Of a stretch of DNA of 64,000 nt, positions 3,687 to 62,034 are shown piece by piece. The stretch covers positions 30,894-94,893 of the forward strand of contig DYTO01000001.1 in NCBI GenBank assembly GCA_020725895.1, given 5' to 3'. The stretch comes from Candidatus Hadarchaeum sp. Its GTDB lineage: Archaea > Hadarchaeota > Hadarchaeia > Hadarchaeales > Hadarchaeaceae. The position numbers and the translations under genes were made by a program. Numbering within the stretch: the first letter of the stretch is position 1; the number at the start of each line of letters is the position of its first letter. Below the pieces are notes generated by a model. It was not told where the DNA came from, made no database searches, and saw only the letters and a program-made list of their open reading frames with translations.

Positions 3687-4076
3687 GTGAAAGATATGAA
3701 AGAAAATGAGTTCAATTATGGCTGGATTGTTGGATTTATAGAGAGCGAAGGTTTTTTTACGCAAAACACGATAAAAATAACCCGAAAATCCAAAAAGAGG
3801 CTCTTAAAATACAAATATATAAATCCCGCCTTTTTCCTCGTAAGCAAGGACATTTCTGCACTTGAAGCGGCGAAAGGCATTTTGGGAATGGGAAAAATCA
3901 AAGAGCACGGCTCGATTTTCCACCTCGAGATTAGGAGGAAAGACGATCTCCTGCGGCTGGTCAACTTTTTGGATGGGAAATTGAAGTCGAGCGCGCGCAC
4001 CCAACAGTTTGAACGCTGGAAGCAAATGGTTCTGCAGTGGAAATCAAGGAGTTGGGGAGAGGGGTCTTTTATTTAA
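3687..4076 (+). CDS. free-standing LAGLIDADG-family homing endonuclease-like protein (single-motif, homodimer type)
   Basis: 129 aa. NYGWIVGFIESEGFF matches the LAGLIDADG consensus (G-F-I-[DE]-[GS]-[DE]-G-x-F). KGILGMGKIKEHGSIFHLEIRRKDDLLRLVNFLDGKLKS is the typical downstream core. The local sequence (about 3600-4080) is markedly AT-rich against a genome of about 55% GC. Confidence 0.6.
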   Translation: MKDMKENEFNYGWIVGFIESEGFFTQNTIKITRKSKKRLLKYKYINPAFFLVSKDISALEAAKGILGMGKIKEHGSIFHLEIRRKDDLLRLVNFLDGKLKSSARTQQFERWKQMVLQWKSRSWGEGSFI

Positions 4077-4102
4077 CAAAAGACGTAGTTTTGTGTGTTC
4101 AC

Positions 4103-5098
4103 ATGGAAAAATTCGAAACCGTGATGAGAGGAGTGAGCGAAGCCGTGACGGAGGAGGAGCTGCGCGAGATAATCTCACGCGAAAATTTCTCTGTTTATTG
4201 CGGTTACGAGCCATCCGGAAAAATACACTTCGGCCATATGCTCACAGTCAACAAGCTAATCGATTTCCAAAAGATAGGCGCGCGAACGGTGGTTTTGCTC
4301 GCGAACATGCACGCGTACCTGAATGACAAGGGATCTTTAGAGGAAATAAGAAAAATCGCGGAATACAACAAGAGCTGCTTCATCGCACTCGGTCTAGACC
4401 CCAAAAAGACCGAGTTTTTGCTCGGCTCCGACTTCCAGCTCAAGCCAGATTACACCACAGATGTCATGCGGATGGCCCTGAGGACGACGTTGCTGAGGGC
4501 CAAGCGCTCCATGACTGAAATCGCGAGGCACATGGACGATCCAGACGTTGCGCAGGTCATCTACCCTTTGATGCAGGCGGTCGATATCGCGCATCTCAAG
4601 GCGGACGTGGCGGTAGGCGGCACAGACCAGCGAAAGGTCCACATGATCGCGCGCGAAAACCTACCTCTCCTGGGGTACAGAAAGCCAGTCTGCGTTCACA
4701 CGCCGCTTCTCCACGGGTTGGACGGGTCCGATAAAATGTCTTCCAGCAAGGCTAACTTCATATCAGTCGACGACGCGCCAGAAGTCATCCGAGACAAGCT
4801 GATGAAGGCTTTTTGCCCGCCAAAGCAGACGGACGATAACCCTGTTATAGAATATGCCGAACACATGGTGTTCCCGAAATTCGAGCGGCTAGAGATTGAC
4901 AGGCCGCTGAAGTACGGCGGGCACCTGGACGTCGAAAGCCCGAAAAAGCTGAAGGAAATGTACCGCGCGGGGGAGCTGCACCCGATGGACTTGAAAAAGG
5001 CAGTTTCCGAGGCCGTTGTCAGAGCCCTTGATCCAGTCAGGAAATACTTCGACAAACATCCAAAAACCGCGCGAAGCCTTTTCACGAATCTCTTTTAA
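4103..5098 (+). CDS. tyrS: tyrosyl-tRNA synthetase, archaeal type
   Basis: The track ORF 4037..5098 contains MEKFETVMRGVSEAVTEEELREI ... CGYEPSGKIHFGH (HIGH-class motif) ... KMSSSKANFI (KMSKS-like). I prefer the start at ATG 4103 because the 4037 start overlaps the LAGLIDADG ORF. Length is about 332 aa, typical of archaeal TyrRS. Confidence 0.9.
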   Translation: MEKFETVMRGVSEAVTEEELREIISRENFSVYCGYEPSGKIHFGHMLTVNKLIDFQKIGARTVVLLANMHAYLNDKGSLEEIRKIAEYNKSCFIALGLDPKKTEFLLGSDFQLKPDYTTDVMRMALRTTLLRAKRSMTEIARHMDDPDVAQVIYPLMQAVDIAHLKADVAVGGTDQRKVHMIARENLPLLGYRKPVCVHTPLLHGLDGSDKMSSSKANFISVDDAPEVIRDKLMKAFCPPKQTDDNPVIEYAEHMVFPKFERLEIDRPLKYGGHLDVESPKKLKEMYRAGELHPMDLKKAVSEAVVRALDPVRKYFDKHPKTARSLFTNLF

Positions 5099-5113: not shown

Positions 5114-5953
5114 ATGTTGGGGGTTGAGATGCGCTCAAGACCTAGATCGATTTCGATAACGTCCGGGAAGGGCGGCACAGGCAAGACCACGGTAACAGCA
5201 AACTTGGGCATCGCACTTGGGATACTCGGCAAGAGGGTCACGATTCTTGATGCCGATTTGACGATGGCGAACTTGTCCATTGTCATGGGAATGCACCAGG
5301 TAAAGACAAGTTTTCTCGACGTGTTGGCGGGGAAGGCCGATTTGAGCGCAGCCATTTACGAAAACCACGGCATCAAAATCGTTCCGACGGGGTTCCGTTT
5401 CGAGGACTCGCACGAGGCGCTTTCAAAGGCGAAGCGGCAGCGCGTGGAAGAGGCCATAAATAAGCTGATCCAGGACACGGATTTCCTTCTAATAGACGCC
5501 CCGGCAGGCATACAGGACGCGACAATAGTTTCAATAGCCGCGGCGAACGAGATGCTGGCGGTCTGCAACCCAACATACACAAGCCTCGTCGACGCTTACA
5601 AAGTCATTCGCTATGCGAACGTGATTGGCGCGTGGACCCGTGGAGTCGTGGCAAACCGCGTTGGCAAAAGAGCCGAACTGCCGAGCAGCGAGATTGAGCA
5701 GTTCATGGGGAAGACCCTAGGAAGCATGCCGGTTCTGGCGGAGATCCCCGAGGACTCGAGAGTCCAAGAGGCAGAGCTTGAGGGGGTACCCGTGGTCGTT
5801 TACGAGCCGAACTGCGCTGCCTCGGTTGCCATCAATCGCTTGGCGAAGGTCATTTCAAGCGAAGCCGCTCTGCCACAAATCTCTGACAGGAAAGAAAGCT
5901 TGGCAGAGACGACAAGGCGCCTTGCGCGTGCCCTGACGGCCAGAAATGTATAA
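5114..5953 (+). CDS. minD: MinD/ParA-family P-loop ATPase, paralog 1 of 3
   Basis: Deviant Walker A ITSGKGGTGKTT, ILDADL, LLIDAPAG (Walker B); overall MinD architecture. An alternative start at M 5129 is possible. Confidence 0.8.
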   Translation: MLGVEMRSRPRSISITSGKGGTGKTTVTANLGIALGILGKRVTILDADLTMANLSIVMGMHQVKTSFLDVLAGKADLSAAIYENHGIKIVPTGFRFEDSHEALSKAKRQRVEEAINKLIQDTDFLLIDAPAGIQDATIVSIAAANEMLAVCNPTYTSLVDAYKVIRYANVIGAWTRGVVANRVGKRAELPSSEIEQFMGKTLGSMPVLAEIPEDSRVQEAELEGVPVVVYEPNCAASVAINRLAKVISSEAALPQISDRKESLAETTRRLARALTARNV

Positions 5954-6633: not shown

Positions 6634-8292
6634 ATGAAACGCAGAACGGAAGGGAGCATTCGAGTGGTTGCGGCGATATCATTGCTGTTTGTAATGTTTT
6701 TAATTACTTCTTCATTTGCTGCGGCGGCAAAGGGTGATCAAAAGACAAATGATAAAGAAGAGAAGAACACGCCGAAAAACACATTGAAGAGCAATCCCGG
6801 AAAATGGGCCGAAGTTTCCACACAGAAAGCAAATGATCAATCTTCAGTAGACGATAAAAAAGACAAAGGCAGTTCGACGCCAGCGCCACCTGTAGAAGAA
6901 CCAGAGGTAGAAGTCGATCTTCGACAGCAGGAGTTTCCTCAACTGGGGCGTCATCGACTGGCGTCTCAACTACTGGTTCCTCAACTGGGGCGTCATCGAC
7001 TGGCGTCTCAACTACTGGTTCCTCAACTGGCTCTTCTGCTGCAGGTTCCTACAGTTGAGGAAACCCCAGTTATCGAGGAGCCGGCAATTGAAACCCCTGT
7101 TGTGGAAGAGCCGGCCGCCCCCGCAGAGGAAATAGTGGTGGAAGTACCAACAGAGGCACCAATAGTTGAGGAGGCGCCGATTGAAGAAGAGCCAATTGTT
7201 GAGGCGACAGTAGAGGATCAGCCCGAAGTTCCAGAAGTTCAAGAACAATTTCCAGAAGAACCAGATGTAGAAACTCCAAGTTCCGAAGCCGAAGAAGTTA
7301 ATGTTGAGGAGCAAACAGTTGAAGAGCCAATAGGCGAAGAGCCAATTTCTGAAGATACAGTTGAGGAAACCCCAGTTATCGAGGAGCCGGCAATTGAAAC
7401 CCCTGTTGTGGAAGAGCCGGCCGAAATAGTTGAAGATGCCGCAGTAGAAACACCAGCAGAAGAAACTACTGTTGAGACGGCTGCCGAGGAACAAGTTGTT
7501 GAAGGACAGGATATCGAGGAACCTGTTGTAGAATCTCCGGTAGAGGAGACTAATGTCGATGATCAGATTACAGAAGAGCAAGTGGTCGAAGAACCCGTTG
7601 CTGAGGATGATATTGAGGAGACTGTCGAGGAGACAGCCGCCGTGGAAGAAATAGCGGTTGAGCAGCCTGTTGTTGAAGAGCAGGTAGCAACGACCGAAGT
7701 CGCAGCAACTCAAATAGTGAGCCAGAGCACGGTCAGCGTAGTTTCGTACAATCAACCAAGTGTTGCCACATCTGTGCAATCGACAGTGGCGGTCTCTGCA
7801 ATGAATTTGACAAAGGCAGAGGTCGTAACAGTAGAAAGAGTTTACCGCCAACCAGTTGTGATAACACAGACGGAAGCCGCACCTCAACCAGCGCCGTCAA
7901 CATCCCCGGCGGTACAGATAGCACAGGTTTCAACGCCGGAATTGGTGAGCGGGAGTTCTGATCAAGCGCCGTCACTGCAAACAAATACAATAAACCCGGC
8001 CGGATTGTCGACGGTTAATGCCGCTCCAACCGACATGACCATCACGGGTGCCGGACTCGGGTTTTTGGTGTTACTATTATTCGTCGCGGGCGGGCTGCTG
8101 AGACCGAAACTTTTGCCCCCCTCCATCGGTCTTAAAAAATTGCAGCCCGCCAACATAATCAAGATCAGGGTCTACAAGAGAGTCGGGCCGATACCGATTG
8201 AGCCAGCACCGGAAAGGCCGAACAGGTTGAAGGTTCTCGATAACAAGAAAATTTTGGCGCTTCTGGAAACGCCACGGATGGTAAGGGGGTGA
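6634..8292 (+). CDS. cell-surface acidic repeat protein (signal peptide, E/V/P-rich repeats, C-terminal TM anchor and basic tail)
   Basis: 552 aa. N-terminal VVAAISLLFVMFLITSSFAAAA signal, then many PxVEEP/ETPV-type acidic repeats, then ITGAGLGFLVLLLFVAGGLLRPK TM anchor. The long antisense ORF 7012..7887 is a repeat artifact. Confidence 0.7.
   Translation: MKRRTEGSIRVVAAISLLFVMFLITSSFAAAAKGDQKTNDKEEKNTPKNTLKSNPGKWAEVSTQKANDQSSVDDKKDKGSSTPAPPVEEPEVEVDLRQQEFPQLGRHRLASQLLVPQLGRHRLASQLLVPQLALLLQVPTVEETPVIEEPAIETPVVEEPAAPAEEIVVEVPTEAPIVEEAPIEEEPIVEATVEDQPEVPEVQEQFPEEPDVETPSSEAEEVNVEEQTVEEPIGEEPISEDTVEETPVIEEPAIETPVVEEPAEIVEDAAVETPAEETTVETAAEEQVVEGQDIEEPVVESPVEETNVDDQITEEQVVEEPVAEDDIEETVEETAAVEEIAVEQPVVEEQVATTEVAATQIVSQSTVSVVSYNQPSVATSVQSTVAVSAMNLTKAEVVTVERVYRQPVVITQTEAAPQPAPSTSPAVQIAQVSTPELVSGSSDQAPSLQTNTINPAGLSTVNAAPTDMTITGAGLGFLVLLLFVAGGLLRPKLLPPSIGLKKLQPANIIKIRVYKRVGPIPIEPAPERPNRLKVLDNKKILALLETPRMVRG
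6937..7030 (+). repeat. 42-bp tandem repeat (2.2 copies) in inverted orientation relative to the gene's other repeats
   Basis: The unit cctcaactggggcgtcatcgactggcgtctcaactactggtt occurs at 6937-6978 and 6979-7020, plus a partial third copy. Its reverse complement reads PVVETPVDDAPVEE in an open frame, which matches the protein's acidic repeat style. The forward strand instead encodes the odd QLGRHRLASQLLVP x2. It is flanked by the 9-bp inverted pair cctcaactg / cagttgagg. Confidence 0.6.
7051..7116 (+). repeat. 66-bp perfect direct repeat, copy 1 (copy 2 at 7357-7422)
   Basis: acagttgaggaaaccccagttatcgaggagccggcaattgaaacccctgttgtggaagagccggcc is identical at both sites, 306 bp (102 codons) apart and in frame. 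Confidence 0.8.
7357..7422 (+). repeat. 66-bp perfect direct repeat, copy 2
   Basis: Identical to 7051-7116. Confidence 0.8.
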
Positions 8293-12727: not shown

Positions 12728-13096
12728 TTGATGCGACACAGGCTCCAAGTGACGTGCCCAATATGCGGGAAGCCGTTCACGCTTGAAGTGGACGTAGGGA
12801 CATATGTTACTGCAGAGACGGCGCCGGCGCCATCCAAAAGAGGTGCCACCGCCCTGGTTCTGCGGGGCCACGACGCAAAGGTGGACTTCGTCAGGCGCGC
12901 GATGACGGCGCTTGCAAGCAAGGATTCAAGCGGGATGATGGAAGTCAACGAGATAATCGAGCTTGCGGAAAAGGTTGGACTCGCGCGCGAGGAAGTCAAT
13001 GAGATATTGGCCACGGAAAAGAGCGCTGGCCACGTCTACGAGCACAAGCCAGGAGTCCTCAGCTTCACGGAGCCGCCCGAGCGTTCGAAGGGCTAG
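12728..13096 (+). CDS. hypothetical protein with N-terminal CPICG zinc-binding motif
   Basis: 122 aa; no recognised family. Confidence 0.4.
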   Translation: MMRHRLQVTCPICGKPFTLEVDVGTYVTAETAPAPSKRGATALVLRGHDAKVDFVRRAMTALASKDSSGMMEVNEIIELAEKVGLAREEVNEILATEKSAGHVYEHKPGVLSFTEPPERSKG

Positions 13097-13294: not shown

Positions 13295-13615
13295 TCAAAC
13301 GAGGATCTTCTTTAACATGCGATTGTATTCTTCGCGGGTGATTGGCGAGTAGACGCCGGCACGGCGCCCGCTGCCAGATGCGATGCAGTTCAGGAGGCCG
13401 GCCTCGCACATGCGCCGCAATGTCGAAGATGCCGACCAAACCTGGTTTTTTCTCGACCCCCGGTAGCTCACCACTTCTAGGTCCAGCAGTTCGCGGTGGG
13501 TGAACTCTTCCGCTCCGTTTTCCCAGGCCCAATCGAGGATTTCTCGCCAAGTTCTGTCGCACGGTCTTTTCATGGCAATCAACGATGTTTTCGTAGTTGG
13601 GAATGTCACTCCCAA
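13295..13615 (-). CDS. small winged-helix (wHTH) DNA-binding protein, putative regulator
   Basis: FTHRELLDL...RKNQVWSASSTLRRMCEAGLLNCIASGSGRRAGVYSPI shows a helix-turn-helix-wing pattern. The true start is probably MKRPCDRTW at about 13573. Divergent from the surface-protein pair. Confidence 0.4.
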   Translation of the reverse strand: MGVTFPTTKTSLIAMKRPCDRTWREILDWAWENGAEEFTHRELLDLEVVSYRGSRKNQVWSASSTLRRMCEAGLLNCIASGSGRRAGVYSPITREEYNRMLKKILV

Positions 13616-13696
13616 CTATAAAAATCTTTCGTTTTTTGAAGTAACCTTTAACTATAAAAGAGTTATTTTAAAGCCCCGGAAATCAATGTTTACCCG

Positions 13697-14545
13697 ATGA
13701 TGCAAAAAGCCGCGCCAACAGCCGCAATGCTTTTCCTTTTGCTGTCTTTAGCAATGCCCTTGGTCGGCGCAGACACATACACGATAGCGCCTGGAGGCAC
13801 ATACATAGTTAATTTCAACGTGAAGAAACCCGCGTTTGTAAACCTGAACGAAGGCAAGTGGCAAGTAAGGGTATATTTTTACACAAGCACGAGCTGCTAC
13901 AACGACGGTTCATGGTGGCAGGCGAGCGGCGACTGGATATACAGCGGCTGGTATGAGGACCGGTACATCGGGGAGGCATGGGGGGGGTCTCCAGAGACAA
14001 AAGAGCACAACGTGTCCACGAAAATCGTTAGCTACCCAAGGCCAGCAGCGGACATAGATCACGGGATGACAGAGCTACCGCTCGGGAGCACTGTGAATTT
14101 CAGGTTAAGAGTACTGCTCGAGCTTGACAAGGAGCCGGTCTTTTCGGGAGGAGGCGAGACTGAGTCGGGGGTAGTGTCCTTCATGATTGGAGGAACGGCG
14201 TACCAATACCAGTACACAGTTGACTTTTACGGGGATACTGAATTGGTCACGAGCAATCCGGAAAAGATGAAGATAAGCCAGAGTTCTTCCGGGGTGTGGC
14301 AGTTGACGATCGACCGGACACTTTCGGCATCCACCAGCGAGTCGGCGTCAAAGAGCGGGATATTTATACTCCCGGACCCCTTGGAAATCGATCTTGCATC
14401 CAGCGCATCTCCCGAGCAGTCGTTAGAACTCCCCTTGGAAGTGAAGATCGTCTCCGGGATAACGGTGTCATTGGTGGTCGCCGGTCTCGTGGCATACATT
14501 GCAATGAAAAAACACGGTGGGGGTGAAATTTTTGTCGAACACTAG
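13697..14545 (+). CDS. secreted, membrane-anchored protein, paralog A (signal peptide, beta-rich ectodomain, C-terminal TM)
   Basis: 282 aa. Signal MLFLLLSLAMPLVGA; ectodomain motifs VRVYFYTS and KIVSYPRPA are shared with the downstream paralog; C-terminal TM ITVSLVVAGLVAYIAM. Confidence 0.65.
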   Translation: MMQKAAPTAAMLFLLLSLAMPLVGADTYTIAPGGTYIVNFNVKKPAFVNLNEGKWQVRVYFYTSTSCYNDGSWWQASGDWIYSGWYEDRYIGEAWGGSPETKEHNVSTKIVSYPRPAADIDHGMTELPLGSTVNFRLRVLLELDKEPVFSGGGETESGVVSFMIGGTAYQYQYTVDFYGDTELVTSNPEKMKISQSSSGVWQLTIDRTLSASTSESASKSGIFILPDPLEIDLASSASPEQSLELPLEVKIVSGITVSLVVAGLVAYIAMKKHGGGEIFVEH

Positions 14546-14579
14546 AAGCTTTTTATGCAGCCATTTTGATAAGCAAAGG

Positions 14580-15689
14580 ATGCCGAAAATGAAGCGCCGG
14601 ATAGGGCTGCTGGCCGCTTTCGCGGTCGCGTTTGTAGTTCTAGCGTCAATTCAAACCTCACCTGTCGCGGCCGACGTCCAGTCAGTCCCCTCATTTGGGG
14701 TAGAGGTCACAGATTATCCGACGACGATTTCTCCGGGCGCATCATACACGATCGCGGTTAGCGTTTCTCGGCCAGAAGGCATGCCGCTTCCCAGTTGGGC
14801 TTCAGGTGATTCGCCCCCGAAATGGGAGATCAGGACGTATTTTTATGACGGCTTGAACGCTTACAGCGAAGGCGAAATGACCGACATCGGCGGTACAAAA
14901 CTATATACTGGATGGTGGGACCATCGCGTTCAGGGCGATTCTTGGACGGCCACAATGACGGACACACGGAATTTCGACATCCCAAACAAAATCGTCTCTT
15001 ACCCGCGTGCCGCAGATGAGATAACCGATGGAAAAATGAACGAGATTCCATTCGGGGAGGAGGTCAAACTAAAAGTAAAGTTGAGATTGAGGTGGGGGGA
15101 TTCGCAACTTCAGTTCAAAAACATCGATAATGACGAGGAGAACGAGTTGACTTTCACATACTACGGCGTGGAGTACGGTGGAGATTACACGGAAATAAAA
15201 GCCAATGTTAAATATCGAGTTGGAAGCGTTTATCTTGAAAAGAGCGAGGGCAACTACTGGCAAATAGATTACGAAACGATAAAGCAGGGAATCCTAGTTT
15301 CTGGCTCAGCGGGAGGCCTGCCGATAGAATTGATCGGGGGCGGAGTGGTCGCTCTTGTCGCCGTTGGAGCGATAATCGGTTTCATGAAGAAGCGCGGCGG
15401 CGGGGAAGCAAAGTACGAGGAATATTCTCAGCCTGCGCAGGCGCCATCGATGGCACTGCCACCAACCACATATCAAATGCCGACCCAAGCGCCCACACCG
15501 ACTTATCAGCAGGCGCCAACACAAGCGTATCCGCAAGTGCCTGCGCAAGCCACGCCACAAGCACCTCCACAAACATATCAGGTCCCGACACAAGCGCCTC
15601 CGCAGGCGCCACAGCAAGCGCAACAGAGCGCACAACCTCAGCAGCCCGAAGCGAAGAAGAAGAAAGAGAAAGACGACTTTGATTTCTAG
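14580..15689 (+). CDS. secreted, membrane-anchored protein, paralog B, with P/Q/T-rich cytoplasmic tail
   Basis: Shares EIRTYFYDG and KIVSYPRAA with paralog A. Signal peptide, TM GGGVVALVAVGAIIGFM, then an APTQ-rich low-complexity tail ending KKKKEKDDFDF. Start taken at MPKMKRR; the track starts at 14517. Confidence 0.65.
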   Translation: MPKMKRRIGLLAAFAVAFVVLASIQTSPVAADVQSVPSFGVEVTDYPTTISPGASYTIAVSVSRPEGMPLPSWASGDSPPKWEIRTYFYDGLNAYSEGEMTDIGGTKLYTGWWDHRVQGDSWTATMTDTRNFDIPNKIVSYPRAADEITDGKMNEIPFGEEVKLKVKLRLRWGDSQLQFKNIDNDEENELTFTYYGVEYGGDYTEIKANVKYRVGSVYLEKSEGNYWQIDYETIKQGILVSGSAGGLPIELIGGGVVALVAVGAIIGFMKKRGGGEAKYEEYSQPAQAPSMALPPTTYQMPTQAPTPTYQQAPTQAYPQVPAQATPQAPPQTYQVPTQAPPQAPQQAQQSAQPQQPEAKKKKEKDDFDF

Positions 15690-16390
15690 GTGCGCAGGAG
15701 TTTCCTGGCCAAGTTAGTTATCGCAGAGTACGCCGAGGACTTTGGTGACGACACCATTAGCGGGACCCCTTCTTTCAGAGCCTTCATCACGGCGTCGTCT
15801 TCAGGAACAGTCCCAAGCAACGGCACATTCATGATCTCTTTTATCTCATCCTTGTCAAGCTCGAATTCCTCGCCCCTGACGCGGTTGAGAACGAACCCGA
15901 TTGGCCGAGACCCCAAAAATTCCGCGACAAGGCGGGTTTTCATGCAGTCGGAAACAGCAACCATGTCGGGTGTTGTCACAAGCAAAGTCTCGCTGGAGGA
16001 CCTGAGCGCAGCCACGGTTTCTCTCCTCAGACCCCCCGAGGTGTCAATCAAGACGAAATCCGCCTTCACAGCAAGATTTTTCATTATCTCTGGCAGCTGC
16101 TCAGGGCGCGTCCTCTTTATCTGTTGCAGGGTCACCGCCGCCGGAGCGATTTTAACCCCCATCGGCCCCGTGTAAAGGACGTTGTCGAACACAGTTTCGC
16201 CTACTATGGCGTCGTTTATTGTGTAGATCGCCTTCTCAAGCTTGAAAAGGAGCGCGAGATCAGGCGTTGTGAAACACGCGTCGATTATTATCGTCTCCTT
16301 GCCCATCTTGGCAAGCGCGAGGCCTAGGTTCGCAACTAGCGTGGTGCGCCCAACTCCTCCCTTCCCTGATGCAACAGCGATAACCCGCAT
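15686..16390 (-). CDS. minD: MinD/ParA-family ATPase, paralog 2 of 3
   Basis: MRVIAVASGKGGVGRTT deviant Walker A, then FVLIDTSGG. Start taken at internal ATG 16390; the track ORF extends to 16483. The 3' end overlaps the paralog B stop by 4 nt, convergent. Confidence 0.8.
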   Translation of the reverse strand: MRVIAVASGKGGVGRTTLVANLGLALAKMGKETIIIDACFTTPDLALLFKLEKAIYTINDAIVGETVFDNVLYTGPMGVKIAPAAVTLQQIKRTRPEQLPEIMKNLAVKADFVLIDTSGGLRRETVAALRSSSETLLVTTPDMVAVSDCMKTRLVAEFLGSRPIGFVLNRVRGEEFELDKDEIKEIMNVPLLGTVPEDDAVMKALKEGVPLMVSSPKSSAYSAITNLARKLLRT

Positions 16391-16476
16391 ATAACCACCA
16401 GACCTCTTTAACAGGTTTGTAAATTGATATCCTTTTTCGCTTTTAAATAGGGCCCGACTAAATAAGGAGGGGGAGA

Positions 16477-17670
16477 ATGCCACAAAAATACGATGTAGTA
16501 GTCGTGGGGGCGGGGCCAGCAGGACTGGCGGCAGCGAGTTCGGCTGCGGCGGAAGGCGCGAAGACCCTAGTGCTGGAAATGCGAGCGCAGGTCGGCGGAC
16601 AGTTGAATTTTGAAAGCTTGGTGTCTCAGGAGTTGGCGAAGGACTTCAAAGGCGCCGCTGTCGGCGAAATCAGAGAATTGAGGCTGATCTCTCCCAAAGA
16701 AAAACTTGCGGTCAGGGGAAAAGTAGGAAAGATTCTCGACAGGGAAGAAGTTTCCAGGATTTTGGCCAACAAGGCGGTGTCTTCTGGAGCCGAGATATGG
16801 ATCAACTCGCCCGTGAAGCACCTTTTGGCAAACGATGGGATTGTCCGCGGCGTGAAAGCCGAGTCCGGCAGTTGGTCCGAGATCGTGAACTCTGAAGTGC
16901 TAATAGACGCCACAGGAAGCGCGGGTCAATTTTCGAGCATTTTCTTGAGGAAATTCTTGAAAAAAGAATGGGCATTCGAGGAACTGGCTTTTTCAAACGA
17001 ATATCTGATGGCCAATTCAAACGTCACCGCGCCTGAAATTTACTTCAACTCATACGTTGCGCCGGGCGGCCGGGCCTGGATATACCCGTTCGGGGCTGGG
17101 AACTCCTTGGCCGGAATCTACGGCATAAGGATCCATCCGGACACGGCGTTGGACGAGTTCATAGGAAGGGTTTCCCCTAGCTCGCTCACAAAAGCCTCCC
17201 CGATAGTTTCAACAAGAGGCCAAATCCCGCTTCAGGGCCCGCTGGATCAAACTTGCGGCAATGGGATAATTTCAGTGGGGGCGGCAGCAGGCCAAATTAA
17301 CCCCCTCACAGGCAACGGCTTACGGTACGCGCTAGCGTGCGGGGAAATCGCCGGGAGGGCCGCCGTCGAGGCGGTCACGGAAGGCGAAGTTTCGGAGTCC
17401 AGACTTTCTGAAGCCGACAAGAATTGGAAATCCATATTCTCCTCGGAATTCGAAGCGTGCAAAGCCGTTCATTCTTTCCTGAAAGTTTCGCAGGACAAAA
17501 AGATGGACAGCATTTTGAAAGTACTGAAAGGCAGTCCGAATGCAAGGAGATCTTTCACAAACGTTTTCACAGACTCAAAACTGAATCACTCTCTAAAGAC
17601 GCTGGTGAAGAGCGAAGTTGGCAAAATCCTCGGGCAAGAAGTCTCAGACAGGGTTTTGAATCTTGTCTAG
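16477..17670 (+). CDS. geranylgeranyl reductase-family FAD-dependent oxidoreductase
   Basis: MPQKYDVVVVGAGPAGL (GxGxxG FAD site). The 397 aa length and overall similarity fit archaeal digeranylgeranylglycerophospholipid reductase. Confidence 0.8.
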   Translation: MPQKYDVVVVGAGPAGLAAASSAAAEGAKTLVLEMRAQVGGQLNFESLVSQELAKDFKGAAVGEIRELRLISPKEKLAVRGKVGKILDREEVSRILANKAVSSGAEIWINSPVKHLLANDGIVRGVKAESGSWSEIVNSEVLIDATGSAGQFSSIFLRKFLKKEWAFEELAFSNEYLMANSNVTAPEIYFNSYVAPGGRAWIYPFGAGNSLAGIYGIRIHPDTALDEFIGRVSPSSLTKASPIVSTRGQIPLQGPLDQTCGNGIISVGAAAGQINPLTGNGLRYALACGEIAGRAAVEAVTEGEVSESRLSEADKNWKSIFSSEFEACKAVHSFLKVSQDKKMDSILKVLKGSPNARRSFTNVFTDSKLNHSLKTLVKSEVGKILGQEVSDRVLNLV

Positions 17671-17679
17671 ATCAGGTGG

Positions 17680-18609
17680 TTGGGGATGCGCTGTTATTCA
17701 TGCAACAGCGAATCAGTTTTCTACGACCATTACAGGGGCGAGTTCTCGTGCACGAGATGCGGGTTGGTCATTTTCGACCGTGCACTTGAGTCCGGGCCGG
17801 AGTGGCGGACGAAAGTTGGTGAGAGCGGAGAGAGGGCGGACGTTGGTTCAGGGATAGATTACACGCTGCATGACTTGGGGATGGGTTCAAGTTTCAACTT
17901 GCCCAACGACGTCTCGCCCGCGAACAGGGCTAGGCTCCGAAGAATGCGCGAGATTCAAAAGCGCTCGAAGACCATCGGATGGCAGGAAAGGAGCCTTCGC
18001 GAGGCCATGATTGAACTTGACAAAATCTGCGAGGACCTGTCGATACCAAAGGGCATCAAGACGGAGGCGAGCATGATATACCGCCGCGCAAAGTCCAAAG
18101 GGCTCACAGGGGGCAGGAACATGAGCCAGGTTTTGGCAGCCGCGATTTTCCTGTCATGCAGGCTCAGGGGAATCGCGCGAACGGAGGGAGAGGTGTCGGA
18201 TTCGATTGCCGCGAGGTACGGTTTTGAAAGTAAAAAATGCGAAAGAACAATCAGAAGAATAGTAAGGGCGCTGAAATGCGCTTTGCAACTTGATGTTAGA
18301 AGGATCTCTCCCGACGAGTACATAGACAAATATTCAACCAAGTTGGGCATTTCCAGGGCGTCCATTGAAAAAGCGCACCAAATCCATCAAAAGTTTCCTA
18401 GGAAATTCTTGCAGTCGAAATCACCGCTATTCTTGGCCGCAATCATGATATATTTGGGGGTCAAAGAAACCGGCGAGTTGGTGACGCTGAAGCAAGTCGC
18501 GGATGGCGTGGGTGTCGGCGTTTCGAGCCTTTCCCAAAACGCCACGCAGTTCAAAAAGATTATTCAGAAAGACCTAAACGAGCCCACTTCTCTCAAAAAG
18601 CGTATTTAA
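17680..18609 (+). CDS. tfb: transcription initiation factor IIB (TFB)
   Basis: N-terminal zinc ribbon CYSCNS...CTRCG followed by two cyclin-fold repeats. About 307 aa. Likely start at M 17686. Confidence 0.85.
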   Translation: MGMRCYSCNSESVFYDHYRGEFSCTRCGLVIFDRALESGPEWRTKVGESGERADVGSGIDYTLHDLGMGSSFNLPNDVSPANRARLRRMREIQKRSKTIGWQERSLREAMIELDKICEDLSIPKGIKTEASMIYRRAKSKGLTGGRNMSQVLAAAIFLSCRLRGIARTEGEVSDSIAARYGFESKKCERTIRRIVRALKCALQLDVRRISPDEYIDKYSTKLGISRASIEKAHQIHQKFPRKFLQSKSPLFLAAIMIYLGVKETGELVTLKQVADGVGVGVSSLSQNATQFKKIIQKDLNEPTSLKKRI

Positions 18610-18655: not shown

Positions 18656-19507
18656 ATGAAATCGACTGGAGCTGAGTCAGAAGTATTTTGCCCGAAATGC
18701 AGGCGATACGTTGGGACGTTTGAGCGTTGTCCTTATTGCAGATCTAAAGTTCCGACAAGATTCTCATACCGTTTTCTGAAGTGGGGTGGGCTCACCGTTG
18801 CCGTCCTTGGCGTGATTTTCCTTTATGTCGACCTTCACGGCCCTCGCTTGGTCGTACGTCCGGTCCCGACTGTCGGGATAAGTGAGATCGGCCCGACGAT
18901 GAATTACGCTCAAGTCTACATCACCGGAAAGGCCACGTTCGTGAAATACGACGAAGAGACTAGGGCATTGGGAATGTTTTTATCCGACGAAAACGGCGTT
19001 GAACTCTTTATCAGGGCCTATGATACGGAAACCCTGCGTTTGCTGAAGTTTGAGAATAAAAGATTAATGGAAAATGACAACACTCCGAGGTTCCCAGGGA
19101 CCGGAGATATAATCACCGTGCGAGGAAACCTACGCATCCGCCCGGACTTCAACATGATGATTGTTTCATTCGCGGAGGGCGTAACCATCGACCGTCCCGA
19201 GGCATCCATCGTCACGATAGAAAACATGGTTGAAAATTCCACGGCGTTCGGCATCTACGAGAGGTTGCAAATAGAAGGAAAAATAATAGACATCGCGACG
19301 TACGACTGGTCAACAATCCTGACAGTCTACGAGATCAGTTCCGGTGCCGAGGCATCTGTTCTGATTCCCAACATTTTGACAGACTTTCTAAGACCATTTG
19401 ATGCAAGTATGGGGGACATGATTAGGGTTAGGGGCGCTTTCGGAATGTATTACGGGTCCCCGCAGCTCTGGCTTGCTTCCTGGGATGATTTTGAGGTGAT
19501 CGGTTGA
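18656..19507 (+). CDS. membrane protein: N-terminal zinc ribbon, single TM, two extracytoplasmic OB-fold-like repeats (paralog of next gene)
   Basis: CPKCRRY...CPYCRS; TM LTVAVLGVIFLYV; two roughly 105-aa repeats of the pattern V-hydrophobic-G-K/T ... F-L-D ... G-D-x-V-x-V-x-G, the second ending YGSPQLWLASWDDFEVIG. The pattern resembles the bacterial OB fold (BOF/YgiW, tRNA_anti-like). The stop overlaps the next start (ATGA). Confidence 0.55.
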   Translation: MKSTGAESEVFCPKCRRYVGTFERCPYCRSKVPTRFSYRFLKWGGLTVAVLGVIFLYVDLHGPRLVVRPVPTVGISEIGPTMNYAQVYITGKATFVKYDEETRALGMFLSDENGVELFIRAYDTETLRLLKFENKRLMENDNTPRFPGTGDIITVRGNLRIRPDFNMMIVSFAEGVTIDRPEASIVTIENMVENSTAFGIYERLQIEGKIIDIATYDWSTILTVYEISSGAEASVLIPNILTDFLRPFDASMGDMIRVRGAFGMYYGSPQLWLASWDDFEVIG

Positions 19508-20961
19508 CCGAGGAGAACATCTGTCCAGCATGCGGCAAGCCAACGGCCGGATACGTCCCGTGCCCCCACTGCGGCGCAGATACGCGGATAAAGTTGAACA
19601 AGAAAGTGGTGCCAATTTTGATTTTGATTGTCTTTGTGGTCGGGATTGCCTTTTTCGGCGCGCATCTGGCCACGATAAGAGCAGACACGATGTCGATATC
19701 GAGCATAGACAGCTGGCAGAACTACGCCAGCGTTTGGGTTTCGGGGATTGTTACTTCCGGGCCGCAGATGGATGAACGCGGAATTTCTTTCGATATCCAG
19801 GATTCGAGCGGCGGGACCATGGAGATTGAAATTTACGTGCCCCCGACGACGCTAAAATCCCAGGGTCTGATGCCGAGCGTCGGGGACAACGTCAAAGCGT
19901 TCGGCCTGTTGCGGGTTTACGTCGACGGGAGCATAACGATGAGACCCTCCAAGCTTGGCGAGGATAAGTTCACAAAGGAGAACAAGTTCCAGCTCTATCG
20001 CGCCGAACCCGTTGAAACGAACATAACGAATTTGCTTTTGAACTGGCACAGCTCGAACTCGCTGAGATTCAAGCGGGTGTCTTTGGAAGGAACCATCGTT
20101 GGGATGAGGGCCCTGTCCTCGGCGAAAATTTACACGCTGCGCGACAGCGACAACAGCACGGTCGACATGTACGTCCACAACGGCGTCGTCAACGCGGAGA
20201 ACGGTGAGCTGGATTTGAAGTTGCTACAAACGGTGAGAGCGACCGTCGGGGCATCGCAATACGGGAACAGCCCACAGCTTGTTCTTTCAAGCTATGATCA
20301 GATCGAGGTTTTGGAAAGCGGCGCCGCAACCCCAGTCCCGATCGAGAGCGTTGACGAAAGCATGAGGGGCGAGTTCATCACTACTGGCGGGAAGATAATT
20401 TTCGTCCTGATGTCGGGCGAGACGAGCAGCCTAGAAGTCGAGAAGTATTACCTGGTAATCGATAATGAATCCAATGCGACGACATGGATGTGGAACAGCG
20501 TTTACCAGCTATTGCCAGATTCCACTCGAGAGCTGCTGAAGCGCGGGTCGGACCTGCAGTTCACAGGAAAAGTCTCTCAGTCCGGAGAACTATCAATCGA
20601 GTTTCTCCTGCCGCCAGATTATACGATAGATAACGGCACTTTCGAGCCGGACTTGATTGAAAACGTGATGTCTCTCGAAGGGGAAAACGTAGGAAAGGTA
20701 GTGGCGATCGAGGGAACGGTCACTTCCGTGGAAAATGTCGCAGCCTTTGACAACAAATTACCTCCAAACCGCCTATTCACGATCCAAGACAATTTCGGAG
20801 GAAACGTCAAGCTTTTGGTGACGAACACGGTTTATGAGAGAATTTTGAGCCCGCCGGTGGTCGGGGACAAAGTTAACGTTGTAGGGACGTACTTCTTGCT
20901 GGAATCAAACGCCGTCTGGATAACGCCGGGATTGCCGAGCGACATAGTGAGGGTGAGCTGA
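19504..20961 (+). CDS. membrane protein: N-terminal zinc ribbon, single TM, four extracytoplasmic OB-fold-like repeats
   Basis: CPACGK...CPHCG; TM VVPILILIVFVVGIAFFGA; four roughly 105-aa repeats. Examples: NYASVWVSGIVTS...FDIQDSSG...VGDNVKAFGLL and NVGKVVAIEGTVTSVEN...FTIQDNFGGNVKLLV...VGDKVNVVGTYFLLESN. One repeat ends GNSPQLVLSSYDQIEVLE as in the upstream paralog. Confidence 0.55.
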   Translation: MTEENICPACGKPTAGYVPCPHCGADTRIKLNKKVVPILILIVFVVGIAFFGAHLATIRADTMSISSIDSWQNYASVWVSGIVTSGPQMDERGISFDIQDSSGGTMEIEIYVPPTTLKSQGLMPSVGDNVKAFGLLRVYVDGSITMRPSKLGEDKFTKENKFQLYRAEPVETNITNLLLNWHSSNSLRFKRVSLEGTIVGMRALSSAKIYTLRDSDNSTVDMYVHNGVVNAENGELDLKLLQTVRATVGASQYGNSPQLVLSSYDQIEVLESGAATPVPIESVDESMRGEFITTGGKIIFVLMSGETSSLEVEKYYLVIDNESNATTWMWNSVYQLLPDSTRELLKRGSDLQFTGKVSQSGELSIEFLLPPDYTIDNGTFEPDLIENVMSLEGENVGKVVAIEGTVTSVENVAAFDNKLPPNRLFTIQDNFGGNVKLLVTNTVYERILSPPVVGDKVNVVGTYFLLESNAVWITPGLPSDIVRVS

Positions 20962-42002: not shown

Positions 42003-42635
42003 TCAGGTCCTTTCACGCGTCCTGTGTATAACTCCCTTCAGAGTACCCATTTCTATTACCTTGAGCTTCGCGTTCAAGTAATCGACGAAGGTTTTTGCAG
42101 GAACGCCGAGTTGCCAAAGATCGACGTAGACCTGCCCTACTGGGACGACGCCCTTGCCGCTTATTTTCGAAAGATGTTCGTCCTGCTTCAAAACAACTAT
42201 GGTGTTTGTCCCGTGATGCGCCTCAAATTTTTTCTTAATCTCAACCGCGTCTCCGTAGACGTGTACTTCCCGATACCTCTCGACGGTTTCACCGAACTTT
42301 ATCTTGAATGCTGAGTAAGCAGTGAGCAAAGAGCCGGCGGGGACGTTTTTCTCTATCTTATCTATTGTCGTGCTAGTGCTGATTCTTGAAACGACATCCT
42401 CGTCAAGGTCCCTGTTGTTGGCCCAGAAAAGCAAGATTCGACCAACGTCAATAACTCTGAAGCCAAGCGGTTTTTTCTCTATTGCACCGATCCTGTCTAA
42501 TTTTTGCATTACCGGGTTCACAGTACCCAAAGAGACCCCGCACGACTCCGCCACCGATTTTTGGTTCATGAAGCGGATATTCTCTTCGTAGAACAGGTAC
42601 AGTATTTGCCGCAGAACTCTTTCCCACCTCTTCAC
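42003..42635 (-). CDS. wHTH transcriptional regulator with conserved C-terminal domain (paralog of 61411..62034)
   Basis: N-terminal HTH (SVAESCGVSLGTVNPVMQKLDRIGAIE); C-terminal VVPVGQVYVDLWQLG matches APVPQVYVDIYSVGG in the paralog. Divergent from the 42737 operon. Confidence 0.5.
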   Translation of the reverse strand: MKRWERVLRQILYLFYEENIRFMNQKSVAESCGVSLGTVNPVMQKLDRIGAIEKKPLGFRVIDVGRILLFWANNRDLDEDVVSRISTSTTIDKIEKNVPAGSLLTAYSAFKIKFGETVERYREVHVYGDAVEIKKKFEAHHGTNTIVVLKQDEHLSKISGKGVVPVGQVYVDLWQLGVPAKTFVDYLNAKLKVIEMGTLKGVIHRTRERT

Positions 42636-42736: not shown

Positions 42737-43519
42737 GTGGGAGAAATGGGGAAAAAATCCCAGGCGGCAGCAGCGTTGGCAGCGATAATGCTGATTTGCT
42801 TAGGTCTCGGCACAACTCTTGCGATTGATAACGAGAATTACTACTCTTATACCTATCAAGAGTTCGGCGACCAATTCTTGAAGTTTTTCACAGTATGGTC
42901 GGAAAATACAGTAGATAACTCGTCGGTCGTTTATGGTTACTTGTACGACAAAAAACCAAGCTGGGCTTCTTCACCACCGATGACCGTGAGCTGCTATTTC
43001 AGCATCGAGAACACGGTTGAAATAAAAACGATGGATATTGAATTCAGAGTCACGAAAAGTTGGTTGGACACAATCAAGATTTCTGAAAACGACGTGGTAT
43101 TGTTGGAATACGCGGGCAGCTGGGTCGAGCATCCAACTTCCTTGAAAGAAGCCGGTGAGACATATTACACGTACTCCTCGTCGTCGTCCGGGCTTTCGCT
43201 GTTCGCTGTCGGCGGGAGATCGGCGGAGTTACAGAGCCCACTGCTGCCAGTAATGCTCTTCGTAGCCGCCGTATTGGCAATTTCTATTGTTTACTGGTTC
43301 GTCGTCAGGCCGCGCAGATTTTTCGTGTCTCTCAAGAAATTGGAGAGGGATACTGGCGAAGAGATAGTCAGAGGAAGCGGAGGCAAAATCGAAGAGGAGT
43401 CGGAACAGATAGCCAAAATGAAGAGACGTACAAAGCCTCAAACGAAAAACATTAAATCAGGGAAAGATGCAGAAATTCTGAGGGAATTGAAGAAAAAAGC
43501 TGGAAAGAGGCGGGAGTGA
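42737..43519 (+). CDS. secreted, membrane-anchored protein (signal peptide, ectodomain, C-terminal TM and charged tail)
   Basis: Signal AALAAIMLICLGLGTTLA; TM LLPVMLFVAAVLAISIVYWFVV near the C-terminus; lysine-rich tail. Confidence 0.55.
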   Translation: MGEMGKKSQAAAALAAIMLICLGLGTTLAIDNENYYSYTYQEFGDQFLKFFTVWSENTVDNSSVVYGYLYDKKPSWASSPPMTVSCYFSIENTVEIKTMDIEFRVTKSWLDTIKISENDVVLLEYAGSWVEHPTSLKEAGETYYTYSSSSSGLSLFAVGGRSAELQSPLLPVMLFVAAVLAISIVYWFVVRPRRFFVSLKKLERDTGEEIVRGSGGKIEEESEQIAKMKRRTKPQTKNIKSGKDAEILRELKKKAGKRRE

Positions 43520-43818
43520 TGGATAGTCTAAGAGACGTCGATATAAAATACGTAGAGGCGGCTAAGAACAATCTTGACAAGCTTATTCTATGGATTCTCA
43601 GGACTCGCGGACCGTTGAGCCGGCACGAAATAGTCCAACACATATTCGCCTCCCACGGGTTTTTGCCTCGTCAAGAAAAGGTAGATGAAATGCTGGATAA
43701 TTTCATTCAAAAAAGCATAATCGAAAAGCAGGCAAACGGGTTGACGTCCGTTTTCATTTTAACTAAAAATGGAGTAAAGATCGCGTCCGATTCAAGCGAA
43801 GCTATTCGTATTTTATAA
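43516..43818 (+). CDS. small winged-helix protein (100 aa)
   Basis: LILWILRTRGPLSRHEIVQHIF...LTSVFILTKNG is wHTH-like. ATGA overlap with the upstream gene. Confidence 0.5.
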   Translation: MMDSLRDVDIKYVEAAKNNLDKLILWILRTRGPLSRHEIVQHIFASHGFLPRQEKVDEMLDNFIQKSIIEKQANGLTSVFILTKNGVKIASDSSEAIRIL

Positions 43819-43824
43819 AAAGAA

Positions 43825-44637
43825 ATGGTGGAGACCTTGGACCCCTCGAATCAAAAGCCTTTGAAAAAAATCCTGAGCGGGTTCGAGCGGGGGCGAAGAC
43901 CAAAGATAACCGCAAGACGGGCGTACATCTTGGGAGTTTTTTCATGTAAAGGCGGCGTCGGGAAGACAACGACCGCGGCCAACATCGGAACCGCGCTGGC
44001 GGAAAAATTGGGAGAAGGAATCCTCCTCGTCGAGGCAAATCTCTCCGCGCCAAACTTGGGGCTTCATCTGGGAATACTGGACGTAGAGACTAGCATGCAC
44101 GACGTCATGGCCGGAGCGGCCCCGATAGACAAAGCCATACACACCGTTGGAGGGAATTTGCAGGCCATACCTGGATCGCTCGCTTACGAGGAAGAAATCC
44201 ATTACGTGGATTTCAAAGCGAAGATCGAGCCGCTGAGAAGCAAATATAAGTTAATTATATTGGATGCGGGGCCAGGGCTCGGCGCAGAGGCGATTTCTTC
44301 GATAAAAGCAAGCGACGAGATGCTGATAGTCACGAATCCCGAAATCCCGACGATTGCGAGCACTCTCAGGACATTCAGGGCGGCCGAGCGATACAGGGTC
44401 CCGATAATGGGGACGGTGGTCAACAAGGTGCGCGGGAAGAATTACGAGGTTCCTCTTTCGGAGGTGAAAAAGAGCCTAGGCTGGCCGATTCTGATGTCTA
44501 TTCCGGACGATGAAAAGGTGAGGGAAAGTTTGACCGCCGGGGTGCCAGTAGTCAAATTCGCTCCTAAATCTTCTGCGGCGCGCGCCTTCAACGAACTAGC
44601 TGAGCGGATTTACGAGAAGCTAGGTTCCAAACTTTAA
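43825..44637 (+). CDS. minD: MinD/ParA-family ATPase, paralog 3 of 3
   Basis: ILGVFSCKGGVGKTTT deviant Walker A, ILDAGPG Walker B. 270 aa. Confidence 0.8.
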   Translation: MVETLDPSNQKPLKKILSGFERGRRPKITARRAYILGVFSCKGGVGKTTTAANIGTALAEKLGEGILLVEANLSAPNLGLHLGILDVETSMHDVMAGAAPIDKAIHTVGGNLQAIPGSLAYEEEIHYVDFKAKIEPLRSKYKLIILDAGPGLGAEAISSIKASDEMLIVTNPEIPTIASTLRTFRAAERYRVPIMGTVVNKVRGKNYEVPLSEVKKSLGWPILMSIPDDEKVRESLTAGVPVVKFAPKSSAARAFNELAERIYEKLGSKL

Positions 44638-61410: not shown

Positions 61411-62034
61411 GTGAAACTGATGCACATGAAAATCGAGCGAATTTACCGTGAGCTCCTGTTGCGCAGCCTATCCAAGGAGTTTCTCACAAAACAGGAGGAC
61501 CTCGCCAGCCGCTGCCAGACTTCCATCGGCCTTGTAAGCAAGGCTGTGAAAAAGTTGGAAGATGCGCACGCGGTGGAGGCCACGAGGCAGGGCGTCCGGG
61601 TACTTTCCTCGGCGCGGGTCTTGAACATTTGGGCAACCGAACGCAAGCTTTCAAGGGACATTTTCGCGGCTTTTCGCCTGGATTCACTGGACAAGGTTGA
61701 AAAGGAATTGCCGCGTGCCGCGATAATCACCGCGTTCTCCGCATGGCGCGCATTGACCGGCAGGCGCCCGGCCGACTATTCGCGCATATACTTCTACGTA
61801 CGGGAAAGCGTGGATTTCGAACGCTGGTTCAGGTTTCGGGAGACCGGCGCAAGGAAGACCAATCCAAACGTTTTCGTCCTGAAAGCCGACGACCCGCACT
61901 TGTTGTCGACATCGGAGAGAGGGATTGCCCCCGTCCCGCAGGTATATGTCGACATATATTCGGTCGGTGGGCCCGAGGCGGCGCCATATCTTCGGGACAT
62001 CGCCGAGAGATATCCGGAGTTGAGCCCGTGGTAG
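61411..62034 (+). CDS. wHTH transcriptional regulator with conserved C-terminal domain (paralog of 42003..42635)
   Basis: HTH TKQEDLASRCQTSIGLVSKAVKKLEDAHAVE. C-terminal motifs shared with the paralog. Confidence 0.5.
   Translation: MKLMHMKIERIYRELLLRSLSKEFLTKQEDLASRCQTSIGLVSKAVKKLEDAHAVEATRQGVRVLSSARVLNIWATERKLSRDIFAAFRLDSLDKVEKELPRAAIITAFSAWRALTGRRPADYSRIYFYVRESVDFERWFRFRETGARKTNPNVFVLKADDPHLLSTSERGIAPVPQVYVDIYSVGGPEAAPYLRDIAERYPELSPW

Follow-up and report, generated by a model that had tools for sequence, protein, structure and literature searches.

The 64,000-nucleotide (nt) stretch of archaeal DNA from Candidatus Hadarchaeum sp. analysed here (hereafter the window, with transcription factor B (TFB), an archaeal MinD, AMMECR1 and a geranylgeranyl-reductase-like (GGR) gene among its content, and with closest database proteins named as Candidatus Hadarchaeales, Hodarchaeaceae or Hadarchaeota) carries two adjacent genes, A and B, which encode paralogous proteins and are followed by MinD2, a convergent gene of the MinD family. 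The explanation favoured here, to which we give about an even chance, is that A and B are type-I bitopic surface proteins which arose as a pair by an ancient duplication and are specific to Hadarchaeota, and that MinD2 is a facultative rather than an obligate companion of this pair. The features which define the pair are:

13650 to 13660, plus strand: TATA-like element AACTATAAAAG, the putative A/B promoter, 37-47 nt 5' of the ATG of A, recognised by sequence inspection.
13697 to 14545, plus strand: gene A (P0006), 282 amino acids (aa), paralog A; score of 328 bits with the family hidden Markov model (HMM).
14580 to 15689, plus strand: gene B (P0001), 369 aa, start at M22 of the longest open reading frame (ORF), 14517-15689.
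15390 to 15686, plus strand: predicted cytoplasmic tail of B, made up of KKRGGGE, a P/Q/T-rich low-complexity part of about 90 aa and the end KKKEKDDFDF.

That A and B are adjacent plus-strand paralogs had been proposed in an earlier reading of the window from its letters alone (the sequence-only reading). The two proteins indeed align over about 290 columns encompassing both the ectodomain and the transmembrane (TM) segment (BLASTP E=1e-24, 27% identity), and the motifs quoted in that reading, VRVYFY/IRTYFY and KIVSYPR, are present in both. The database homolog P0001 and the orthologs of B begin at M22 (position 14580), hence the length of 369 aa. By hydropathy and inspection, each N-terminus consists of a hydrophobic segment followed by an AxA-like site, while hydropathy shows a single C-terminal hydrophobic segment (aa 245-271, nt 14429-14509 in A; aa 243-270, nt 15306-15389 in B), after which KK(R/H)GGGE gives a positive-inside pattern. 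A then ends in a short acidic tail, GGGEIFVEH, and B in a P/Q/T-rich tail of about 100 aa which terminates in KKKEKDDFDF. The tails of B orthologs reach 130 aa; the terminal motif, KKK(E/K)(K/S)DD(F/V)DF, recurs in P0002 and P0004 and is conserved among close relatives only. An AlphaFold2 (AF2) model of B, built from a seven-sequence alignment (mean predicted local distance difference test score, pLDDT, 74; core blocks 80-96), contains two beta-sandwich domains of Ig-like type, followed by a long C-terminal TM helix. The sequence-only reading had assigned to both paralogs a signal peptide, a beta-rich ectodomain and a C-terminal TM segment, and to the second a P/Q/T-rich cytoplasmic tail, and it had named structure prediction of the ectodomains as a check. 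The anchor is borne out by hydropathy of both proteins, the beta-rich ectodomain and the C-terminal helix by the prediction run on B, and the tail is found as described; what stands of the signal peptide is a signal-like hydrophobic N-terminus in both proteins, as judged by hydropathy and inspection. The top Foldseek matches of the B model were to cytochrome f (TM-score ~0.25), which is alike in architecture without homology and was set aside.

No Pfam or NCBIfam model matched A or B, those for PGF-CTERM, PGF-pre-PGF and CARDB included, and in both proteins of the family the TM segment is followed by a tail, of 9-130 aa. Searching 1.84 billion representative proteins with the family profile gave 35 matches at E<=1e-3, including one false positive, and word-indexed searches of 5.8 billion clusters gave five B-like and two A-like proteins. 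P0032 (4022 aa, 16 matching stretches) was rejected as a member, being a repetitive RPA-OB protein, and a weak match to the profile (E=1.3e-5, seven stretches) is a large CARDB/BatD-repeat protein. The named members belong to Hadarchaeota/Hadarchaeales, except for one partial sequence on a 1-kb contig binned as Zixiibacteriota. They measure 250-330 aa and share a common signal/ectodomain/TM layout, and in all of them hydropathy gives a signal, a single C-terminal TM segment and positive-inside residues. One member, P0014, is a fusion that carries, between its ectodomain and its TM segment, a Big_1 Ig-like domain and then a longer C-terminal region. The same C-terminal region occurs in P0030, and P0020 (locus L015) has an N-terminal extension of about 180 aa.

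The genomic context was examined in 28 collected loci, of which 17 were informative, mapped with the family HMM and with BLASTP of the neighbour genes of the window. The A-B tandem occurs in 12 loci, with A first. A neighbour-joining (NJ) tree unites the first genes of the tandems in a single clade and leaves the second genes as a more mixed group, which implies that the duplication is older than most of the sampled lineages. In non-trivial relatives B is 50-57% and A 40-44% identical to the proteins of the window. A distant family member, at L009, is flanked by PHP and HycI genes and has no MinD in its vicinity. The literature searches returned nothing on this family. Judged from sequence, A and B are members of a new, small, lineage-restricted orphan family of paired, predicted bitopic surface proteins.

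If so, the two proteins would be exported by a Sec-type signal, display a two-domain Ig-like beta-sandwich and be held by their one C-terminal helix as a membrane anchor, with the basic residues and the tail on the cytoplasmic side. Almost every lineage keeps the two paralogs as neighbours. A joint action is most likely, putatively in an envelope hetero-oligomer with a structural or an adhesive/ligand-binding role, and their transcription may start from their own TATA-like promoter. The gene block around them is deeply conserved and would be vertically inherited, with MinD2 as an optional member. In case MinD2 does act on A and B, it might serve as a dimeric adaptor which hydrolyses slowly or not at all and docks on the proline-rich B tail, rather than oscillate as a positioning ATPase.

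The genes which surround the pair in the window are:

12728 to 13096, plus strand: zn122, 122 aa, conserved co-directional gene upstream of A/B.
13295 to 13615, minus strand: the ORF called a wHTH (winged helix-turn-helix) gene in the sequence-only reading, 106 aa with a TTG start or, more probably, 92 aa with ATG 13573 as the start.
15686 to 16390, minus strand: MinD2, 234 aa (TIGR01969), start MRVIAV at 16390; longest ORF 15686-16483.
16340 to 16366, minus strand: deviant Walker A of MinD2, GKGGVGRTT, with the signature Lys kept and the P-loop Lys replaced by Arg15.
16274 to 16282, minus strand: switch I of MinD2, D37-A38-C39 (D-x-D in canonical MinD).
16391 to 16476: divergent intergenic region between MinD2 and GGR, 86 bp, with the putative element TTTTAAATA/TATTTAAAA at 16441-16452 recognised by sequence inspection.
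16477 to 17670, plus strand: GGR-like FAD-dependent oxidoreductase (Pfam FAD_oxidored, GGR_cat).
17680 to 18609, plus strand: TFB, recognised by Pfam Zn_Ribbon_TF/TFIIB on orthologs and by synteny; end of the conserved block.

Throughout the 17 informative loci the genes are arranged as AMMECR1 (minus), Mut7-C (minus), zn122, A and B (plus), optionally MinD2 (minus), GGR and TFB (plus). MinD2 lies between B and GGR in ten of them (the window, L001, L002, L003, L005, L007, L010, L011, L012 and L027), in which GGR and TFB have diverged to about 45-60% identity with the convergent B/MinD2 junction kept. It is absent from the other seven, namely L013, L014, L017 and L022 (group X), L019 and L020 (group Y, with a single A/B family gene) and L026. 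These seven loci contain no remnant of MinD2, and B or the single family gene lies 37-52 nt from GGR or overlaps it. The synteny across relatives, which had been suggested as a check on the sequence-only reading, is therefore split: the B/MinD2 linkage is kept in ten loci, and MinD2 is cleanly missing from seven, which represent at least two to three lineages. NJ trees of GGR and TFB place group Y at the base, and group X and L026 beside the MinD2-bearing L012, so that about two to three gain or loss events of MinD2 are needed. Where present, MinD2 always runs convergent to B, and its position on the opposite strand precludes co-transcription with A and B. In the window it diverges from GGR across the 86-bp region. 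GGR itself is always found 3' of the pair, with or without MinD2. As unrelated housekeeping genes of the block are equally syntenic, adjacency alone constitutes weak evidence for a functional link.

Side observations on the block concern its rearrangement, its extension and its promoters. At L007 (822-2771) GGR is inverted and lies 5' of MinD2 on the same strand across a 36-nt gap, with the 4-nt B/MinD2 overlap retained. Directly 3' of TFB in the window (18656-20961, plus strand) are genes for two N-terminally anchored proteins of 283 and 485 aa, and similar TFB-following genes occur within a few genes in L001 (13421-15762) and L005 (9594-12046), extending the conserved block; orthologs of the 485-aa protein give faint OB-fold matches. 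The sequences CTATAAAAA/TTTTTATAG at 13615-13660 and TTTTAAATA/TATTTAAAA at 16441-16452 are TATA-like and similar on both strands, which suggests that the gaps between ORF 13295-13615 and A and between MinD2 and GGR are shared bidirectional promoter regions.

The sequence-only reading had also placed a gene for a MinD/ParA-family ATPase on the opposite strand, with its 3' end overlapping the stop codon of the second paralog by 4 nt. Both statements proved correct. MinD2 scores 245.3 bits against TIGR01969 minD_arch (cut-off 201.75), which identifies it as an archaeal MinD, and aligns end to end with PDB 1hyq (E=9e-52), while the stop codon of B (TAG, 15687-15689) and that of MinD2 (CTA, 15686-15688) together make up the palindrome CTAG at 15686-15689. 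Its orthologs in the ten loci are 60-97% identical, and 60-79% identical in non-trivial relatives. In all 11 orthologs the Walker A motif is KGGVGR[ST]T, with Arg in place of the P-loop Lys and the signature Lys kept, compared to GK[ST]T in the two further MinD paralogs of the window, MinD1 and MinD3, and in PDB 1hyq, 1ion and 1g3q; the ParA/MinD signature xKGGxGK[ST], with both lysines, is thus incomplete. Switch I reads D[AGS][CS] in the same 11 orthologs, versus D[AG]D in 1hyq, 1ion, 1g3q and MinD1. The D-x-D pattern is missing from MinD3 as well (E-A-N). E. coli MinD requires K16 and D40 for ATP binding/dimerisation and hydrolysis; D40, the counterpart of the second switch-I Asp, is the catalytic, water-activating residue. 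With both positions substituted in all orthologs, MinD2 is hence expected to go through a nucleotide cycle that differs greatly and is probably poor in hydrolysis. MinD2 ends five residues past the last helix aligned with 1hyq, and its orthologs add up to about 12 residues, basic in character, so that a C-terminal amphipathic membrane-targeting helix is lacking. A conserved GGLRRET follows Walker B in the orthologs. A literature search on KGGVGR MinDs returned nothing relevant. From its motifs, MinD2 looks like a catalytically degenerate MinD lineage. Due to the Walker-A Arg, the switch-I Cys/Ser and the missing amphipathic extension, it probably does not act as a canonical, cycling ATPase that positions cargo by oscillation or gradient formation.

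Three observations weigh against a merely inherited neighbourhood with an optional MinD2. The proline-rich B tail is present in all ten MinD2-bearing loci and in one of the seven MinD2-less ones, an association (Fisher p~6e-4) which assumes independent loci and is to be read knowing that the loci are related and represent few independent events. The 4-nt overlap of B and MinD2 recurs in the window, L002 and L007, with the two genes abutting in L005. Finally, the combination of a signal and a C-terminal TM segment is found in four of the 68 genes of a rough gene call of the window, and all four lie within two genes of a MinD, a proximity which is suggestive, by a test defined post hoc. The co-occurrence of tail and MinD2, the recurrent overlap and the MinD proximity fit a functional coupling better than pure inheritance, and a facultative functional link between A/B and MinD2 is possible.

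One explanation for these observations, which we regard as unlikely, is that A, B and MinD2 form a dedicated cargo module, in which MinD2 dimers bind the tail of B and localise, cluster or scaffold the A/B complex, and in which B may in addition tether MinD2 to the membrane in place of an amphipathic helix. Such a module is consistent with a B/MinD2 junction kept in ten loci, down to about 45% identity of GGR and TFB, with the co-variation of tail and MinD2 (10/10 versus 1/7), and with the absence of a membrane-targeting extension from MinD2 itself; moreover, MinD1 and MinD3 also adjoin bitopic proteins with long cytoplasmic tails. ParA/MinD ATPases are known to bind partner proteins or cargo, and some are encoded together with their cargo genes, e.g. 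TadZ/CpaE in the tad locus (PMC11407121). Within the archaea, whose MinDs are sister to bacterial MinD, Haloferax volcanii MinD4 positions archaella and chemosensory arrays, for which its membrane-targeting sequence is needed (bioRxiv 10.1101/2020.04.03.021790), and MinD2 of the same species, co-transcribed with a neighbour (HVO_0596) without phenotype, affects shape and motility (PMC11588486), that is, both act on envelope-associated machinery. However, seven loci keep A/B or a single family gene without MinD2, and the number of independent losses or gains is only two to three. Only a few residues are left of the tail in groups X and Y (VKMKGAGGVSP and LLRKKKPAQA), but L026 has a poly-proline tail (PPPPPPPP) with no MinD2 beside it, and the terminal motif of the tail is restricted to close relatives. 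The convergent orientation excludes co-transcription, and the substitutions in Walker A and switch I disfavour ATP-driven patterning. The dedicated positioning ATPase put forward in the sequence-only reading thus retains the junction in ten loci and a tail which tracks MinD2, but is at odds with the seven MinD2-less loci, the opposite strand and the degenerate motifs.

A second explanation, likewise improbable, is that zn122 is the partner of A and B, as a DNA-binding regulator or as a cytoplasmic component of their complex, and that MinD2 is unrelated to them. An ortholog of zn122 lies directly upstream on the same strand in L001, L003, L005, L010, L013, L017, L019, L020, L021, L026 and L027, and zn122 precedes the pair in all informative loci, the MinD2-less ones included, with overlapping ORFs in L005. 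Its orthologs are 54-96% identical, far above the conservation of A and B, and share an invariant CPxCG close to the N-terminus. Over the C-terminal half there is a weak but repeated resemblance to MCM winged-helix (WH) domains: PF21120 MCM_WH_arc is matched in six of seven members (best E 3.3e-5, all below the gathering threshold), PDB 2m45 (MCM WH) at E=1.4e-4 and 4fdg at E=3.9e-3, and the C-terminus of PHROG 10371 (DNA helicase) at E=1.4e-4. The WH similarity falls below curated thresholds, though, and zn122 is separated from A by a gene on the other strand in both the window and L003, which shows co-transcription to be dispensable. Further, AMMECR1, Mut7-C, GGR and TFB are also kept, so that the adjacency of zn122 may equally reflect inheritance.

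The gene which interrupts zn122 and A, ORF 13295-13615, had been taken for a divergent small wHTH gene preceding the pair. This label could not be substantiated, as no Pfam, NCBIfam, PHROG or PDB entry matched it. A single-sequence AF2 model is helical, with a helix order compatible with wHTH, at an unreliable pLDDT of 48.8. Nor does the gene belong to a conserved unit with A and B: it is found in the window and L003 (91% aa identity, the closest relative), while L001, L005 and the other loci lack it, the conserved upstream gene being that at 12728-13096. ORF 13295-13615 is thus, judged by its distribution, probably a recent lineage-specific insertion outside the conserved unit, and if A/B have a conserved partner or regulator, zn122 is a stronger candidate than this ORF. 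The ORF has no detectable relation to the 100-aa protein gene at 43516-43818, and TTTTTATAG is located 5' of it on the minus strand, at 13617-13625.

A further, quite improbable variant holds that MinD2 has been co-opted as a static adaptor on the B tail, providing a transmembrane link which organises a surface structure of A/B heterodimers, with MinD1 and MinD3 as parallel modules. The features relevant to these two paralogs are:

5114 to 5953, plus strand: MinD1 (TIGR01969), canonical GKGGTGKTT and DAD.
6634 to 8292, plus strand: 552-aa acidic repeat-rich protein two genes 3' of MinD1, with a signal-like N-terminus, a C-terminal TM segment and a 57-aa tail.
42737 to 43519, plus strand: membrane-anchored protein with a PGF-pre-PGF domain (TIGR04213 E=1.7e-11).
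43516 to 43818, plus strand: 100-aa protein between the PGF-pre-PGF gene and MinD3.
43825 to 44637, plus strand: MinD3 (TIGR01969, 189.6 bits), switch I V-E-A-N.

The count of three MinD paralogs in the window given by the sequence-only reading (5114-5953, 15686-16390 and 43825-44637) holds, and the three are 29-34% identical to one another. MinD1, with 251.0 bits against TIGR01969 (cut-off 201.75), is the only fully canonical one. It has a basic C-terminal extension of about 30 aa (ETTRRLARALTARNV; ETTSRLVRALTGRRA in L001), which might be a membrane-targeting helix. Its gene is followed by that of a small DUF3147-like membrane protein, encoded on the opposite strand, and then by that of the 552-aa protein, for which profile scans gave no family match and which contains an exact tandem duplication (PQLGRHRLASQLLV twice), long E/V/P-rich acidic repeats and TPVIEEPAIETPVVEEPA twice. 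A homolog of this protein occurs in L003. In L001 it is absent beside the MinD1 ortholog (68% identity), whose next gene encodes a Macro-domain protein instead. MinD3 falls just below the TIGR01969 cut-off and combines a canonical Walker A with a deviant switch I. It is the last of a tight co-directional trio whose first gene, 42737-43519, overlaps the next by 4 nt, and this trio is the most operon-like of the three MinD clusters; the same order in L028, which is more than 90% identical, is uninformative. The PGF-pre-PGF protein is not related to B. The statement that each MinD sits beside genes for exported or anchored proteins therefore applies within two genes in the window, but the adjacency at MinD1 is not kept in L001.

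The possibility that all of these associations are incidental, A and B being fast-evolving orphan membrane proteins and the MinD neighbourhoods a sample of a background in which 16 of 68 window genes (24%) have a TM-like segment, agrees with the lost adjacency of MinD1 and the 552-aa protein in L001 and with the lack of mutual relationship among the three MinD-neighbouring membrane proteins, but is given very little credence, given that the signal plus C-terminal TM layout is rare and confined to MinD surroundings, that tail and MinD2 co-vary and that the paralog pair predates the divergence of most sampled lineages.

Further observations were made on other genes of the window. Divergently upstream of the MinD3 cluster, 42003-42635 (minus strand) encodes a protein of about 210 aa that is paralogous to 61411-62034 (plus strand; 31% identity, E=3e-25). 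Both have an N-terminal, sub-threshold Crp/MarR-like HTH, and 61411-62034 gives a weak AbiEi_2-like match. At 3687-4076 (plus strand), in a stretch of low GC content (0.46) just 5' of a tyrosyl-tRNA synthetase-like gene (4037-5098), a 129-aa ORF carries WIVGFIESEGFF, which by eye resembles a LAGLIDADG homing-endonuclease motif.

To our knowledge, hardly any cargo of an archaeal MinD paralog has been identified, and phenotypes have been described only for H. volcanii MinD4 and MinD2 (motility and cell shape). The literature searches made on the Hadarchaeota cell envelope also surfaced nothing, and A and B may be part of the envelope in a phylum with hardly any cultured members. The interaction between MinD2 and the B tail is a candidate backed by partial phyletic co-variation, and the conserved loss of two catalytic residues in the MinD2 lineage points to a scaffolding protein and not to a motor. 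Should the link be real, the rule that a ParA/MinD gene adjoins that of its cargo would extend to archaeal membrane proteins, and if the adaptor role is correct as well, MinD2 would be a 'pseudo-ATPase' MinD and the first MinD of the archaea for which an integral-membrane cargo other than the motility machinery is identified. If the link is false, the analysis still annotates an orphan family and a conserved Hadarchaeales gene block.

Compared to known systems, MinD2 resembles the archaeal MinDs (TIGR01969; 1hyq of A. fulgidus, 1ion of P. horikoshii and 1g3q of P. furiosus) in its score, its alignment with 1hyq and its signature Lys, but differs from them in the P-loop Arg and the switch-I Cys/Ser of all 11 orthologs. 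It shares the Walker-A variant KGGVGR with NF047398 ('KGGVGR-motif variant AAA ATPase'), to which it nevertheless scores only 48 bits (cut-off 90) over the N-terminal ~65 residues; it is a MinD_arch member instead. No Pfam domain for MinC or MinE was present among the called neighbours, and no search was aimed at either. The divisome-positioning system Dip (PMC13228585) is GTPase-based and hence irrelevant here. With H. volcanii MinD2, the MinD2 of the window shares the lack of an obvious membrane-targeting sequence and a location beside the gene of a potential partner, which in the present case is bitopic and encoded on the opposite strand rather than being a co-transcribed small cytoplasmic protein. 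TadZ/CpaE and BcsQ scaffold rather than oscillate, and TadZ has an atypical nucleotide-binding site. They are MinD-family localisation factors or hubs for envelope-spanning cargo, the Tad pilus and cellulose synthase (PMC11407121), and in this respect offer the likeness to the putative role of MinD2, although the BcsQ and CpaE models match MinD2 only weakly and far below their cut-offs. Among the differences, MinD2 is convergent with its putative cargo gene and outside the cargo operon, adjoining B in 10/17 loci and never co-transcribed with it, as the outcome of two to three independent events; nor does the A/B block contain pilus, secretion or polysaccharide genes. As for A and B, they resemble archaeal bitopic surface (glyco)proteins such as the PGF-CTERM archaeosortase substrates and S-layer stalk proteins, in that a signal-like N-terminus, a beta-sandwich and a C-terminal TM segment are combined, with a weak CARDB/BatD-repeat match and a Big_1 fusion in one member. 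They differ from these in that the TM segment is followed by a cytoplasmic tail rather than by the end of the protein, and in being small (26-40 kDa) and a fixed paralog pair at one conserved locus.

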